DNA of 64,000 nt, taken from positions 2,170,001 to 2,234,000 of the forward strand of contig OZ287070.1 in assembly GCA_965645245.1 (NCBI GenBank), read 5' to 3'. Each line of letters begins with the position of its first letter. Within the stretch, counting starts at the first letter, position 1. Below the pieces are notes generated by a model. The model worked only from the letters and a program-made list of their open reading frames with translations, did not search any database and was not told the origin of the DNA. This document shows, piece after piece, positions 48,472-56,538 of the stretch. Both the position numbers and the translations under genes were made by a program. This stretch comes from Massalongia carnosa. Taxonomy: Eukaryota.

Positions 48472-51400
48472 ATGCGAAGAGAGAAGATCGTAAGGAGTTG
48501 CGGGCTTACTTTGAGTCACGCGTTTCCATATCCACTTTACAAATTCCATGGACTTCCAATTTCTACAGTTCCAAAATACAAGTACCGCCTGACTAGAAAT
48601 CCAATCATGTCTTTTACAGCCGGGGAGAAAGAGCAATGGCCTGCTTTGCGAGTAAGGGAAACATTTCTGGATTACTTCAAGAGGAATGGTCATACTTTTG
48701 GTATATATATCGAACTCCTAGGAGAGCCCTAAGCATGATACTGACCGTATCATCTAGTCCCATCTTCTTCGGTCGTGCCACATTCCGATCCGACATTGCT
48801 CTTTACCAATGCCGGCATGAATCAGTATAAATCAATATTTCTAAACACAGTCGATCCTTCCTCTAATTTCGCTCACCTGAAGCGCGCCGTAAACTCGCAG
48901 AAGGTCCGAGCCATATCTGCTTGGACTTCAGCCAGTACGCTAACAGTTGTAGTGTATTCGTGCTGGAGGCAAGCATAACGTAAGCTTCAGCCAAGTTGTT
49001 AAGAGGCACAGGCAGAGGCTTATTTAAAAAGGACCTTGATGATGTTGGGAAAGATAGTTACCATCATGTAGGCTCTCTGCACCTATATTGTATTTGAGAG
49101 CGTTAATCAGAGTTATCAGACATTTTTTGAGATGCTTGGCAACTGGAGCTTTGGTGACTACTTCAAGAAAGGGGCTATAGAGTACTCCTGGGAGCTTCTG
49201 ACCAAGATATATGGTCTACAGCCTGATCGCCTCTATGTGACTTATTTTGAAGGCCATGAAGCCGGGGGGCTAGAGCCCGACCTAGAAGCAAAAGAGTTAT
49301 GGAAAGCTGTAGGGGTTGCTGGCGACCATATCCTTCCTGGAAATATGAAAGACAACTTCTGGGAGATGGGCGAACAAGGGCCTTGTGGACCTTGCAGTGA
49401 GGTTCATTATGATCGAATAGGTGGCAGGAATGCCGCGGAGCTGGTTAATCAAGATGACCCAAACGTGCTTGAGATATGGAACAATGTGTTCATCCAGTAC
49501 AATCGAGAGCCAGATAGATCTTTACGGCCATTACCGAATAAGCATATTGATACGGGAATGGGGTTCGAACGCTTGGTTTCAATTCTTCAAGATAAACCGT
49601 CGAACTACGATACCGATGTTTTTTCACCCCTGTTTCAAACCATAGAGAAAATTACAGGTGCGAGGGAGTACCAAGGTAAATTTGGTAACGAGGATCTAGA
49701 TGGCATTGATACGGCCTATCGAGTGATCGCAGACCACGTACGAACGCTCACATTTGCAATTTCAGACGGTGCTGCACCCAATAATGACGGTCGAGGTTAT
49801 GTTGTCCGCAGGGTACTACGGAGAGGCGCTCGATACGCCCGCAAATACTTTAGATCTGACATTGGAGACTTTTTCTCGAAAATTGTCCCAACCCTAGTTC
49901 AGCAGATGGGTGATATGTTTCCAGAAATTAAGAAGAAAGAGTCAGATGTATTGGAAATTCTAAATGAAGAAGAGGAGTCGTTTGCCAAGACTCTCGATCG
50001 TGGAGAGAGGCAGTTTGAGAATTACGCTCAGCAGTCCAAAATTCAGGATTCAGGACGGCTTCACGGAGCCAATGTATGGCGGTTGTATGATACGTTTGGG
50101 TTTCCAGTGGATCTAACACGGCTTATGGCTGAAGAGAGAGGCCTAGATATAGACGATGCAGAGTTTGAAGAAGCTCGACTCAAGGCCAAGGAGGCCAGCA
50201 GAGGAGAGAAGAAAGCAGCCACTGACCTTGTAAAGCTGGACGTCCATGACATCAATACCCTGTCGAGGATGTCAGGCATTACAACTACGGACGATAGTGC
50301 AAAATACGGCCGAGGCAATATCACATCGCTAATCAAATCTATCTACTATAACAAAGAGTTCCTGCAAAGTACGAAAGATATACCCGAAGGCGAGCAATTC
50401 GGCGTAATACTGGATCGAACAAATTTCTATGCGGAGCAAGGTGGTCAGGAGAACGACACGGGGAAGATTATCATTGATGGTGTTGCCGAAATCGATGTTC
50501 AAAATGTTCAGGTGTATGGTGGATACGTGCTTCATACTGGCTACATTAAGTACGGTTCCCTATCCGTGAACAATGAAGTCCTATGCGAATACGACGAGCT
50601 ACGACGGTGGCCTATTCGAAACAATCATACCGGAACACACATACTTAACTTTGCGCTGCGCGAAGTTCTCGGTGATGGTGTTGATCAACGAGGATCACTT
50701 GTGGCGGCAGAGAAGCTACGTTTCGATTTTTCCCATAAATCCAGCGTCACGGACGCCGAGCTGGAGAAGATTGAGGATATATCCACCAAGTACATTCGTC
50801 AAAACTGCGGAGTCTATGCCAAAGATGTCCCATTGGCAACGGCTCGTGAGATCGAAGGATTGCGCGCCGTGTTTGGGGAAACGTACCCCGATCCTGTACG
50901 AGTTGTATCAGTAGGTGTGGAAGTTGAAGAGCTTCTCCAAAACGTCAAAGACCCTAAATGGCGCGAAGTGAGCGTGGAGTTCTGCGGCGGCACGCACGTG
51001 CAGAAGACAGGCGACATCAAAGATCTCGTTATCCTCGAGGAGAGCGGCATCGCCAAGGGCATCCGACGCATCATCGCCGTGACGGGAGAAGACGCGCACA
51101 CGGTCCAACGGGTCGCGGAGGAATTCGGCGACCGCATCTCCCGCTTGGAGAAGATGGTTCACGGACCGCCCAAGGAGCAAGAAGTAAAGCTTGTCCAGAA
51201 CGATCTGAACCAACTAGCCATTTCCGCCATCACCAAGGCCAAGCTGCGGGAGCGTTTCGCAAAGGTCGTCAAGCAGCAGTTGGACGAACAGAAGGCGCTT
51301 CAGAAGGCGGAAACCAAGAAAGCACAGGATGCAGTGGTGGAGTTTTTCGCTCGCCCCGAGAACAAGGGAAAGGATCATCTGATCACTAGAATCCCAATTT

Positions 51401-51822
51401 CTGCCAATGCGAAAGCCGTCAGCGAAGCTATCAATCACGTCAAGACCAAGAGCAAGGACAAATCCGTCTACATTTTCGCGGCTGACACTACGGGCGGAAA
51501 GGTCATTCATGGCTGCCACGTCTCCGAAGTATGTATCCATTTTTTTATTCTTCCTCCTTTCCGCTCTCCTTCCCTAAAAGGCCCTCCTCACTCAATCCAT
51601 TGCACCTCCTTCCTTTTTCGCTAATACGCACCCACCACCCCACAGGAAGCCAACAAGCGCGGCGCCTCTGCTAGCGATTGGGCCGGCGCCGTTTCGGAAA
51701 TCGTTGGTGGCAAAGCCGGCGGAAAGGGAGCCACAAGCATCGGGAACGGCACCGCGGCGGAGAAAGTCGATGAGGCGCTGGATGCGGCGAGGAAATACCT
51801 GGAGCGTTTTCATATCGGTTGA
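48472..51822 (+). CDS. ALA1: Alanyl-tRNA synthetase; cytosolic start probably 48607, in-frame upstream ATG at 48472
   Basis: [53 protein letters not shown]; editing domain NHTGTH and EFCGGTH; GIRRI; last exon GGKAGGK to TGA 51820-22. Confidence 0.97.
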
Positions 51823-52573
51823 TTTTTGCATTAAGAGAGGAGTGAGGGGTGGGGGAGTCCTAAGGGGGTGGGGTGGGGAGGGTGTGGGGAGGGTGTGGGG
51901 AGGATGTAGACTTGGTGGTATTGTATAGCTTTAAATCAAAAGGAATAGGAGGGTTACTAGACTTTCATTTCCTTGCATTCCCTGTCTAAATACAAGATGC
52001 AGCAGCACGTGGATAAGAGAGCGGAACATTACTTATATGATCTATACTACAAGGGCACTCGACCTTAGCTTAGTGCTGCTCTCGTGCATGAACACTATTC
52101 TCGAAGATGCAAAGGCTGCCTACCTGTATCATGTCCACGACAATCCCCCTCCCCCCAAACATGTGCCATGTGACATTTGAGAATACCTTCCAAAATGCCC
52201 TTTTCTTCTCCGGGTTGTGTGGCATAATGCATCAAACCGGGCCGTTTGTGTTTTTTAAAACCCATTGATGTCGAGGGGCGGAGGAGAGAGGCTTCGGTTG
52301 GAAAGCAATAGATGCTAGGTCTAGGAAAAGAACACATACACACACAGAGAGAGAGAGAGAAAGAGAAGATATGTAGGAAGGAGAAAAACCATGTTGCTAA
52401 TCAGGTTCAATGACTATTGAATGCGTAACGAACGCCTCGAACTGCCGTGGAATTTCTTTCCTCCATTCTCCACTCCCTCTCACAACCTTCCAAATCCAAT
52501 CCGAGCCCCGAGGAATCTATTCCTAAGCGTGGGAACTCCCTGGTGCTGCCGCGCGTGCCCCACAGCTCGGCCT

Positions 52574-53894
52574 CTACTTTCGCTTGGGACGTCCCGAGCG
52601 GCCTTTTACTGAATTTTCAAAGTCCTGGATTAGTCCCATCGCGTTCGAAAATGCCTCGCTGCTTTCCCAGGTGGAATCCTTGGCCGCGTAACCAAGCCAT
52701 TTGACCTTATACTCGGCCCTTTTCCCCCGAAATCGCTTATCCAAGATCCTCTCCACCCTGTACTCCGTCTTTGCTGAAGAGACCGTAGATGTCGAACATC
52801 CCGAAGCGGTGGGAGCTGATGAAGATGGGTAGATCCAGAAAGGTTCCCGGAGGCTTTGCAACGAGGCTTCGGAGAAATCGAGAACTCCGTTAGGATCGAT
52901 CTGCTCAAGGCGGGCTTCCAGTATTTCCAAATCTGGGAATATCCACTTTTGGGCAACATCCTCTTGAATCCAGCCGATGATATTGAACATGCAGCGACGA
53001 GCATCATGGGACTGAGACATTCCCCATCGACGTAATTCTTGCGCCAAATAGGTGATGGTGCCATTGGCAGCTCGGGAAGCCCAATGCACGCGCAAAGTAT
53101 CTTGGTACATGTTAACACTCATGGTGAACACCAGCCCCATATCGAAAAAGCTATCCTCTCTCACCACGGCGCGCTTCAGCTGAAGGATATTATTTACCAT
53201 GACTGCGCCGTTATATTGGTTCTGAAGATCTGACACGTATTCCTTGCCTAACGGGCTCTTAGCTTCAGCTGTGAATAATGGCCATGCCAAGGCCGTGTCC
53301 GGAGTCATGTGACCTTTTAGATATCCTGAAGCCCGAGGGCTACGTATTTGCTATTGGATTCCATCCAATAGCTTGATCGGGTTGTGGCACCGGGAGTGGC
53401 GTCGTCATGCTTGGGGGTAAATGCACTGATCTGCCCCATGCCTGGTTGGCTTGAATGGCCATCTCATTGCTGTCCCAGATATCATCCAAGGGAAGCAGTT
53501 TTGCAAGAACTGCTTGGAACAATCCAGATTCGTTCCGGCATTTCCAAGCTCTCCGCGCGAGATTAAGCTGAGGTCCAGATTCGGCATTCAACGAGGGCCG
53601 CCCTAAGACTTCCTCGATATATTTGATATTTTGAGGTGAGGTGGGAGTGTCGATGGCGGGGTGAATATGACGATCCATTAAAAGTTCACTATGAAGAGTT
53701 GGGTTAGCATTCATGGTGCGTAAGAACAGACGCTGCGTAGATGTGGTTTCTGTATCAGAGATCTGCTCGTCAGTGGATTTGCCGTCTAAGGAAAAATGCT
53801 GTGGTACTGTATCAAGAGAAGTATAGTTTATGCTTTGGGCAGGTATTAAATCCGCCTCTTTACAGCGAGGCCCAAAGTTGTAATCGGTGTCCAT
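52574..53894 (-). CDS. PD-(D/E)xK-like nuclease-fold protein fused to a C-terminal chromodomain, one frameshift near 53350
   Basis: NE...NQAW...PQPDQAIG / WPLFTAEAK...LQNQYNGA...LRVHW, then EYRVERILDKR...EYKVKWLGY...STWE and basic tail GRPKRK. Confidence 0.7.
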
Positions 53895-54911
53895 CGTTTG
53901 TCAATAAATTTGGCGTTGTTTCAAAATAAAAAAATCTTAATTCGAAACTTGTTAGAGAGATATATATCCCAGCTCCTATGTTGTCTAGTTTCACAGTAGA
54001 ACATCTCCCTTGGTCTGGGATTTTTGGACGATCAAAGAAAAAACCTACCTTTTTAGGATAAGAAGAACAGGAAGAAGGCCGGAAGAATTACTGATACCGT
54101 TTGCGGAAGACTGCATCAGGAACAGTGTCATATTACTACCCCCTTTTTTTCAACCCTTGGATAAACAAAGGGGACACTCCTTTATCTTCCTTATTTTCGT
54201 CATTTTATTGCAGCGAAGATCATATGTAGTCTTCCTTTGCCATGCTAGAATGCCTGGAATGAAACCCATCTTGCAAGCACGTCAAGACCTCAGCAAGCCA
54301 ATAAACTGATTACCCATGTAGATATCAAGGCGATCCTTGACTACTGCAGACCTAACGCTAATAAGCTGGGATTGGGTGGAGGCGCTGGTATGCCGTACTC
54401 GACCCATGCAGGAAAATCCGTTATCTTTTAATTTGATACAAGAGGCGGCATCGAAATGGTTTGCGAAGCCTGAAATCTGAATGATTGGAAACTAATTTGG
54501 CATCGACGGTTGTAAATAGCTACCCTCACGTGGTGATTGAAGCTTGAGATTAGATTAGATTACATATTATCAGCTAGATGAGATAAGCGAATCGCTCCAG
54601 TCACATGTCTGCCAGTCTGCCAGGCACCCAGGGCAAAAGACCTAAGGACTCCACGTGACCCGCTGCCCGGTGCGTGGACACATCGTCTGGTTCTTTTGCT
54701 ATATTGCTCTTTTGCCCTCTCGCAGAACCACAGAGAACAACGTTATATTTTTTATATAGCAGACGTGTTGGCAGGCATTCATGATGGCCTAGTCGTCTGT
54801 TCCAAGTGGCTGACGTACATGGGTCCAAGGCGGTAAACGTCTGATCCCAGAAATGGCGATCCAAGACCTGCAAGCAGATTTCAACCCTCAGATACTACGA
54901 AACATCTCATC

Positions 54912-56538
54912 ATGCAGTGCGACATTTGCAAACGCCCATCAAGTAGTCGTCTTCCCTTTAATTGTGTCGACTGTGCGCGAAATGCTCTGTATGAGCCACG
55001 AGTACAACTCGCGCAGATTCTGCTTCAAAACGAAGCTATCTCTAAAGACGTGGAACGAAATATAGGTGCAAAATCGACAAGCAACAACAGCAGGACGGTA
55101 GCTAATATCAAGTCTCCGGAGCTCCGTGGAGCATGGACACTCGAGCAGGCTAAAGGAGACCAAATTTGTTCAACAGCCAAAACGCAGGCTATGCTGAGCC
55201 ATGTTGAAGCCTTGCGTAAAGAGACGGAAAGCATGAAAATCGAAGTGGCCAAGAGAAAATCAAGCCTTCTCAAGCGTCGGTCTGTTCTCAAATCGGCCGT
55301 CAATGCTTTATCGCAACATGAGTTGGTGGCCCTGAAGCCAGTGGAGAAGGGAGTGAGACGCATTCAACATCGGTGGGACGCCATCCACACCAAGACTGCC
55401 GAGTCGCGAGTTTTCCTTTGCCGAGAGGCTGCTCAACTGTACGGGCTACAGCAGCGCAAGCGGAGAAAAGGCACACTGGGCAGAGATGTCTATCTGATTG
55501 GAGGAATTCCCATTGTAGATCTCAGAGACCTGAATAGTAACCCTACCCGCTTGATCCGTTTTTCTATCCTCAAGCTGATACAAATTCCACGAAGATGCCT
55601 CTTCAGCTCAGGTTACCACGTCTATCACCAATCTTGCTCACCTCATTCATCTCGTCTCCCACTACCTTTCCATCCGTCTTCCCGCTGAAATCACCCTCAG
55701 CCACCGCGACTACCCCCTCCCCACCATCTTCTCCCCGGCATCTTCTTACACCCCACGGGAGGTCCCCTTCCCCGGTTCCTCAAACAATAGTCCCTCCGCC
55801 TCGCGCACAGCCGACCAACGTTCCCTTCCCCGCCCCCGGCCCCTCCATCTCGATAAAAAACTCTCCGTCCTAGCCAAAGAAGATTCAGTTGCCTATGCTT
55901 TTTTTGTTGAGGGTATTACGTTCTTAGCCTGGGATGTCGCCTGGGTATGCAAAACTCAAGGCCTTGACGTCAGTGCCGGCTCTTGGGAAGAAGTTTGCGC
56001 TATGGGCCGGAATCTCTGGCAGCTTCTCGTCGGCCCTCCCGCTCAAAACAGCACAAGTCCGCCTCCAGCGACAAGAATAGCGCTATCAATTCAAGACACC
56101 CCTTCTAGACCAACAATCTTCCGCAACCCAACCTCCATGCATCCTCCTCATCCGCCACCTTCCCTCTCCCTCAAGCCTCCCTCCTCACCTACCTCGCTCG
56201 GCTACTACTCCCACGGCACGGCGCACTCGTTCCTCGCTGGTGCCGAAGGCGCAGAATACCTACACGGGTGGCGATTGCAGTCGCCCGTCAAGGTGATTGA
56301 AAAAGTGAAGGCGATGCTGCTGAGCGAGCGCACGGGCGCCGAATGGGAGATTCTAGAGGGGAACGAGTGGCTGGACGAGGAAGGGGGGGAAGGGGAGCGC
56401 ACTGGTGATAGTTCTGCTGCTCGGAAGGGAGGGGACGAGGGGAAGGCCAGAGATATGACTGCGGGGGGGGAAGGGGAGGAGGGCAAGAGCAAGGGAACGA
56501 ACGGGTGGATGAAGGTGAAGAGCCGGGCGGGGGTTTAA
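54912..56538 (+). CDS. Atg14/Vps38(UVRAG)-family PI3K complex subunit
   Basis: CxxC...CxxC N-terminus, coiled coil, ESRVFLCREAAQLYGL, SHYLSIRLPAEITL, LAWDVAWVCKTQG, LGYYSHGTAHSFL; one intron ~55538-55594. Confidence 0.85.

Follow-up and report, generated by a model that had tools for sequence, protein, structure and literature searches.

A frameshifted gene of Massalongia carnosa joins a DUF7924 domain of predicted restriction-endonuclease-like fold to an HP1/CDY-type chromodomain

Results

A gene split by a single frameshift

The window analysed here is a stretch of 64,000 nucleotides from Massalongia carnosa (contig OZ287070.1 of assembly GCA_965645245.1, positions 2,170,001 to 2,234,000), and all positions given below count from its first letter. 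Between an alanyl-tRNA synthetase gene and an ATG14-family gene it holds, on the minus strand, two overlapping open reading frames (ORFs) that together encode a DUF7924 domain and a chromodomain. An earlier note on this DNA, made from the letters alone, had read them as one protein of about 440 amino acids broken by one frameshift, and this holds. The stop-to-stop frames run over 53340-53900 (186 amino acids) and 52574-53350 (258 amino acids). ORF1 (53343..53894) supplies the N-terminal 184 codons, in which a variable N-terminus precedes the first half of DUF7924, while ORF2 (52577..53350, 258 codons) encodes the remaining half of this domain and, behind it, a long helix, a linker region, the chromodomain and the basic C-terminal tail. 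The frame of ORF1 is closed by a TAG at 53342-53340 and that of ORF2 is closed upstream by a TAG at 53353-53351, hence the change of frame must fall within 53343-53353. A single four-letter step at this place, that is a +1 shift by one extra base, gives a read-through of 439 amino acids from the ATG at 53894 that is otherwise free of stops. In the read-through, residues 146-306 (52976..53459, spanning the frameshift) match Pfam DUF7924 (E 1.7e-14; 54.4 bits with a cutoff of 27), a family whose likeness the earlier note had suggested, and residues 378-427 (52613..52762) match Chromo (E 3.8e-14; 52.8 bits with a cutoff of 25.1); no further Pfam family is found at E<=1. ORF2 by itself still matches DUF7924 at 44.6 bits. 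The annotation in the source record covers only the last 244 amino acids of ORF2 (P0002), beginning at Met196. The two minus-strand frames belong to a single gene that is divided by the +1 shift.

The read-through contains in order the motifs CRNES (E122, 53529-53531), PQPD (D173, 53376-53378), AEAK (E210, 53264-53266; K212, 53258-53260) and QN (Q224, N225). The frameshift lies in the turn directly after strand 2 of the predicted fold, so that E122 and D173 are held by ORF1 and the ExK residues, as well as QN, by ORF2, and neither product, the annotated protein of 244 amino acids included, is able to form the site. An intron in place of the frameshift was considered and rejected: the in-place GT..AG spans 18 nucleotides, a candidate of 65 nucleotides at 53390-53326 is out of frame, and longer candidates would delete conserved DUF7924 residues and columns.

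Two differently damaged alleles

Contigs of four public sequencing runs (X1, X3, X4 and X5; the stretch is present in 5 of 9 runs, and no RNA run is listed for it) were compared with the window. X1 and X3, two samples of one organism from one study, show 0 differences from it at contig depths of 388 and 776, and a single X1 contig of 12,403 nucleotides spans the gene and its flank (52375-54150) at even depth. The contigs of both samples of this organism show that the break suspected near 53350 is real. X4, a lichen metagenome run, is 99.3% identical with 13 substitutions in about 1.8 kb, and differs at the break itself: base 53353 is absent and 53352 is changed from T to C (plus strand, the TA of the window corresponding to C in X4), which brings ORF1 and ORF2 into one frame. 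The product of this allele is present in the protein database as P0161, a protein of 379 amino acids encoded on a 12,608-nucleotide Logan contig that equals one of the X4 contigs in length, with DUF7924 and Chromo in one frame. P0161 shares a 90% cluster with the annotated 244-amino-acid protein of the window and is identical to the read-through from Met61 on at 371 of 379 positions; around the frameshift it has RQIR where the read-through has IANT. Directly after the Lys at the catalytic position, the window has Ser and P0161 has Gly, and since Gly is the state of the family (37/39), the Ser of the window allele is derived.

The X4 allele carries damage of another kind. Two X4 contigs (12,608 and 10,992 nucleotides) both leave the window sequence at 53718-53720, just before codon 61, with 3 bases in common at the junction; beyond it they continue into unlike sequence, of which 852 nucleotides belong to one side and about 5.1 kb to the other, and the 30-letter loose ends of both contigs occur nowhere in the window. 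Either an insertion of ~5.9 kb or more or a rearrangement has there cut off the gene from its first 60 codons and from the region upstream. X5, from another organism, contributes identical pieces of low depth, with coverage outside 53260-53387 only. Hence, two alleles exist that are differently damaged: that of the window is frameshifted, that of X4 has an open frame and is interrupted near codon 60. The copy in the Massalongia carnosa window is a pseudogene. The frameshift in two samples, the separation of E122 and D173 from ExK and the replacement of Gly by Ser speak against a working effector, as proposed in the earlier note, in this genome.

DUF7924 homologues keep the motifs in conserved columns

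A HMMER search with ORF2 against 1.84 billion representative sequences returned 1954 matches at E<=1e-3, of which the best 150 were examined. Leaving aside the window's own protein, local phmmer comparison divides these into 33 proteins matching the DUF7924 part only and 116 matching the chromodomain only, with none of the 149 matching both. The 33 DUF7924 homologues are 25-30% identical and align unbroken across the frameshift; P0039, for example, aligns in one stretch to query residues 60-333. In an alignment of 39 sequences the four motifs coincide with the conserved columns of the family. In the numbering of P0161, the helix Glu 62 is kept in 36/39, Asp 113 in 35/39, Glu 150 of the ExK in 39/39, Lys 152 in 36/39, the following Gly 153 in 37/39 and Gln 164 in 37/39. 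The Pfam family itself (PF25545) is uncharacterised and found mostly in Ascomycota. The window gene is like it in length and layout, matches above its gathering score and has in common with its members the blocks PKPD...GW, LAWPxFTxExKG and LQNxHNGA. It differs in that the relatives end in a disordered tail rich in Ser and basic residues, whereas the window gene has a chromodomain in its place. The window copy further departs from them by its frameshift and by a Ser in place of the near-invariant Gly that follows ExK.

A predicted restriction-endonuclease-like fold

AlphaFold2 models were obtained for P0057, an intact relative (alignment of 33 sequences; mean predicted local distance difference test (pLDDT) score 85.4, predicted template modelling (pTM) score 0.78), and for the intact allele P0161 (pLDDT 81.7, pTM 0.76, with the DUF7924 part above 90). 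Both models contain the alpha-beta-beta-beta-alpha-beta core, in line with their structural matches, and the restriction-endonuclease-like fold that had been set as a test beforehand is indeed predicted. For P0057, VIA-align ranks the mitoribosomal chains 3j7y_5 (Z 12.3, 11.8 Å over 255 residues) and 7a5f_s3 (Z 11.4, 4.8 Å over 226) first and second, followed by BpuSI (3s1s_A; Z 8.7, 4.3 Å over 152), DrdV (7lo5_A; Z 8.4, 3.2 Å over 133), TT1808 (1wdj_A; Z 7.1, 4.0 Å over 131) and a fragment of HsdR (3h1t_A; Z 7.0, 5.1 Å over 140), and below these by further proteins of restriction-endonuclease-like fold, among them EcoRI, NucC and SgrAI. The P0161 model gives the same list (Z 11.1, 10.5, 8.5, 8.3, 7.7, 7.2 and lower). 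In this list 15 rows have a Z of 5.2 or more: the first two are the mitoribosomal chains, and 11 are titled as restriction enzymes, nuclease subunits or (putative) nucleases; the remaining two, DrdV and TT1808, we take to have the same fold. Z scores of 7-8 in VIA-align are common for models without a clear match, therefore we place the weight on the near-uniform identity of the matches and not on any single Z. In Foldseek mitoribosomal chains are likewise the top rows, with a putative restriction-endonuclease-domain protein and DrdV as weaker ones.

The mitoribosomal pair, which we take to be the mammalian mL37 and mL65, scores well above any restriction enzyme (Z 10.5-12.3 with the two models, over 207-255 residues at 5-8% identity), and the N-terminal helices of the model are covered as well. 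A specific relationship is possible. Literature searches pairing mL37 with restriction endonuclease, or on PDDEXK_12, gave nothing relevant and nothing at all, respectively.

The placement of the conserved residues on the P0161 model appears canonical for PD-(D/E)xK proteins when judged by secondary-structure element: E62 stands at the start of a helix (62-73), D113 just before a strand (114-118), E150 and K152 at the end of a strand (142-151), and Q164, N165 and N168 on a helix (158-182). Model and alignment together place a family-conserved acidic residue before strand 2 and a (D/E)xK on strand 3, and the order of helix Glu, PQPD, AEAK and QN, pointed out before as the spacing of such a core, thus falls on conserved columns and on the expected elements. 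Among the 30 nearest clusters of P0039 in the protein Atlas, 24 are DUF7924 and 4 are PF20516 (PDDEXK_12), the latter at a score of 0.90, while P0161 has a PDDEXK_12 cluster among its neighbours at 0.80, a lead only by the standard of the Atlas; these neighbours lend the fold weak and non-independent support. Taken together, DUF7924 is predicted to adopt a PD-(D/E)xK restriction-endonuclease-like fold, and an E / D / ExK / Q signature is conserved in the family.

With the restriction enzymes the DUF7924 protein has the core fold in common (BpuSI, 3s1s, and DrdV, 7lo5: Z 8.3-8.7, root mean square deviation 3.1-4.3 Å over 133-152 residues; HsdR, 3h1t and 2w00: Z 7.0-7.2), and type IIG/IIL and type I enzymes show the same motif order, with an acidic helix residue, a D before strand 2, ExK on strand 3 and Q on the next helix. 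In contrast, there is no detectable sequence similarity to BpuSI, DrdV or HsdR, the gene is eukaryotic and lacks the methyltransferase, helicase and specificity modules of such enzymes, and the protein has extra N-terminal helices and a C-terminal helix of 40 residues.

An HP1/CDY-type chromodomain and a basic tail

The chromodomain, of HP1/CDY/Rhino type and above the gathering score of Pfam Chromo (PF00385), matches 40 solved chromodomain sequences at E<=1e-5, best among them Rhino (1.5e-10), then Oxpecker, CDY/CDYL and HP1; for the HP1/CDY/Rhino structures 4quc, 2dnt and 1kna the E values range from 1.5e-10 to 1.2e-8. Its Y (TEY), W (KW) and Y (GY) align to Y/W/F of Rhino and Y/W/Y of CDY, positions that we take to be the methyl-lysine cage of HP1 structures, in agreement with the intact cage described in the earlier note. 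The basic tail GRSGRPKRK (52577..52603) ends the protein. It has no Pfam AT_hook match at E<=1, the motif being very short, and its GRP core presumably resembles an AT-hook or a nuclear localization signal. Unlike the HP1/CDY/Rhino proteins, the window gene has a single C-terminal chromodomain on a nuclease-fold protein and no chromoshadow domain. By description, the plant SEND1 (Pfam Chromo_SEND1) follows the same design, a methyl-lysine reader with a DNA-cutting domain, but with a different nuclease fold (not the PD-(D/E)xK fold of DUF7924) and in a different lineage.

The nearest relatives of the chromodomain itself are proteins with 2-7 tandem chromodomains (for example P0004-P0030), which look like an abundant class; some also have C2H2, BTB, zf-CW, Zn2Cys6, PIF1-like or arrestin domains. 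Reverse transcriptase (RT) or integrase is found in none of the 117 nearest chromodomain proteins (17 at E<=1e-3, 100 at E<=1e-8), a weak test of origin because the ranking sums repeat scores and retroelement polyproteins with a single chromodomain would fall below the best 150.

The fusion is restricted to one lineage

A homologue carrying both domains in one ORF was found in the form of the natural allele P0161 and in no other form. None of the 33 close DUF7924 proteins has a chromodomain, although any such fusion in a remote branch of DUF7924 might rank below the best 150 of the 1954 matches. A homologue search with the family alignment lists PF25545 only for all 10 proteins among its matches, and a word-indexed search with the read-through gave, apart from the protein of the window itself, a single chromodomain protein. 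With a six-sequence DUF7924 alignment we retrieved 36 metagenome loci (26-37% identical, about 18 distinct groups), and no chromodomain occurs within their retrieved flanks (0/36, tblastn E<=1e-3) or among the ORFs of 11 of these loci (0/127). The 30 Atlas clusters nearest to P0161 include none with both families. A literature search pairing chromodomain with PDDEXK found nothing, and one pairing it with restriction endonuclease-like gave, among the matches listed and as far as their excerpts go, telomeric retrotransposons of the blast fungus. Apart from P0161 the fusion is thus found in no independent homologue, and the sequences point to a novelty of one lineage and not to a family.

Genomic context

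The neighbouring genes are an alanyl-tRNA synthetase (49072-51624, plus strand) and an ATG14 gene (54837-56538, plus strand). The remark in the earlier note that the gene stands alone between housekeeping genes, without RT or integrase, is borne out: the 64-kb window holds no further DUF7924 or chromodomain copy, there are no long terminal repeat (LTR)-like, terminal or long inverted repeats within 6 kb of the gene, and neither the protein nor any of 19 frames that flank or overlap it (E<=0.1) shows a transposon family, RT or integrase (rve/RVT). The ATG14-family gene lies in two overlapping frames, which match Pfam ATG14 profile positions 1-212 and 197-346, most likely with an intron near 55580-55690. 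A G-rich 11-nucleotide tandem repeat (GGGGAGGGTGT-like, 3-4 copies) is located at 51864-51907, downstream of the alanyl-tRNA synthetase gene, and a CT/GT microsatellite at 52330-52375, just downstream of the fusion gene.

Two kinds of surroundings were observed for DUF7924 genes in the metagenome loci. Four loci (L011, L016, L029 and L030) have the order DnaJ, an unknown ORF of 440-460 amino acids and DUF7924, with JmjC next in L011 and L030; this conserved order indicates that some DUF7924 genes are stable and syntenic, as a host gene would be. Elsewhere, a tyrosine-recombinase gene of the DUF3435 family lies 0.2-1.5 kb from the DUF7924 gene (L001:4231-6160, in three frame pieces, and L014:2581-3587). 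L003 is the same locus as L001 (99.7% identical over 8.6 kb), and L014 is independent. DUF3435 is the 'captain' of Starship elements, and some DUF7924 genes may be linked to Starship/Crypton-like elements.

Discussion

We describe a lineage-restricted gene of a lichen-associated ascomycete, single-copy within the 64-kb window, that combines DUF7924 with an HP1/CDY-type chromodomain and a GRP-containing basic tail. In the intact protein the chromodomain, perhaps together with the basic tail, would dock on H3K9- or H3K27-methylated chromatin. The DUF7924 domain would then bind and most likely cut DNA there, with metal-dependent catalysis by D173, E210 and K212 and with E122 assisting. In Massalongia carnosa the gene is inactivated, with the one-base shift and the Ser for Gly beside the catalytic Lys. 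Since the window and its 99.3%-identical relative carry differently damaged alleles, the fusion seems to be an evolutionary trial of recent date that is now disappearing, that is a young and lineage-specific fusion already decaying, in a family known for copy-number turnover. As a whole, this explanation of a chromatin-docked and most likely DNA-cutting fusion that is inactivated here seems to us moderately probable, and a heterochromatin-aimed nuclease is plausible.

Several observations weigh against this explanation. The chromodomain part of the P0161 model is uninformative (pLDDT ~45-60), because the underlying alignment does not cover the chromodomain. Foldseek of the P0057 model against the PDB gave no match at E<=1e-3, the best being 1.8e-3, and the restriction-enzyme Z scores of 8-9 are near the level that is common for unmatched models. 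Sequence searches of the PDB with the protein or the family profile returned chromodomains only, or nothing relevant. The best structural matches, the mitoribosomal chains, are presumed non-catalytic, so that the fold is no proof of catalysis. From codon 61 on, window and X4 differ by 4 amino-acid and 2 silent changes, too few for a selection test or to show constraint. Finally, X1 and X3 possibly include the assembly's own source data and are then not fully independent of the window.

The main rival is a non-catalytic one, in which DUF7924 is a nucleic-acid-binding or scaffold domain that keeps the fold only, as in mL37 and mL65, and the intact fusion acts as a chromatin adaptor. We regard it as less probable but deserving of serious consideration. 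In its favour, the alignments to the two mitoribosomal chains, the best structural matches, extend over a larger part of the model than those to any restriction enzyme, and these proteins are termed 'repurposed endonucleases' in a passage of a review (PMC8998825). Further, the sequence searches gave no match to a proven nuclease. However, the E / D / ExK / Q columns, kept in 35-39 of the 39 sequences, form an active-site pattern and not that of a scaffold, although this does not settle the question. Compared with mL37 and mL65, which are ribosome-bound and presumed non-catalytic, DUF7924 is a fungal family of many members that keeps its acidic and Lys columns.

We consider it unlikely that the gene is explained by mobile elements, either with the chromodomain as the captured tail of a Ty3/Gypsy integrase or with the DUF7924 gene as cargo of a tyrosine-recombinase (DUF3435, Starship/Crypton-like) element. 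The DUF3435 genes beside DUF7924 genes at one locus (L001/L003) and at L014 would fit such an origin, as would the state of the X4 locus, where unlike sequence of ~5.9 kb or more, or else a rearrangement, interrupts the gene at 53719. Moreover, DUF7924 is listed among the families most dispersed in copy number in the N. crassa pangenome, beside RNase_H and zf-CCHC, in a passage of that work (PMC13412767), a listing beyond which a full-text literature search on the name DUF7924 gave nothing in the excerpts it returned. Against this stand the lack of any transposable-element family in the protein and the 19 frames and of long terminal or inverted repeats around the gene, the one even-depth 12.4-kb contig of X1 that spans gene and flank, and the four metagenome loci that keep DUF7924 in a conserved DnaJ ... 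JmjC neighbourhood. The absence of RT and integrase from the nearest chromodomain proteins points the same way, within the weakness of that test. The idea that the chromodomain is a separately inserted Gypsy integrase fragment therefore finds no trace in rve/RVT domains or in long repeats within 6 kb, while an ancient capture may have occurred.

That the frameshift arose in assembly or sequencing, and that the gene is intact in the Massalongia carnosa strain, is very unlikely. A single break in 439 codons and a near-identical relative with an open frame are what such an error would leave behind. But the deep contigs of two runs from two samples agree with the window at every base, no long homopolymer lies at the site, and the difference to X4 is a two-position change (TA against C) and not a slip in run length. 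A Spok-like meiotic driver or toxin, in which a nuclease kills and another part protects, is hardly credible: Podospora SPOK is likewise fungal, and its killing requires the catalytic Lys of a predicted PD-(D/E)XK nuclease domain, in line with the domain and Lys seen here, but according to passages of the same work it has a C-terminal kinase domain beside the nuclease domain (PMC6660238), whereas the window protein, with 439 amino acids and two domains only, matches no kinase or other Pfam family at E<=1.

If the preferred explanation of a chromatin-docked, DNA-cutting fusion is followed further, DUF7924 proteins in general might be widespread and fast-turning-over fungal DNA nucleases that are active on chromatin, associated with defence or selfish elements and in some cases placed beside DUF3435 tyrosine recombinases. 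In that case the fusion, as an experiment of nature, would disclose what they act on: guided by methylated histones, it would cut heterochromatin and so be a eukaryotic equivalent of modification-dependent restriction. We put this forward as a speculative and rather doubtful extension. The window copy is a pseudogene and the fusion is rare, hence the locus offers a useful annotation and a lead and not a demonstrated system. What is new is a testable assignment of fold and active site for DUF7924, a large uncharacterised fungal family, and the intact allele of 379 amino acids in a close relative (P0161) is a natural construct for it. The chromodomain fusion, although confined to one lineage, hints that the DUF7924 family works on chromatin. 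If its members are indeed chromatin-directed nucleases, this would bear on fungal genome defence and on selfish elements.

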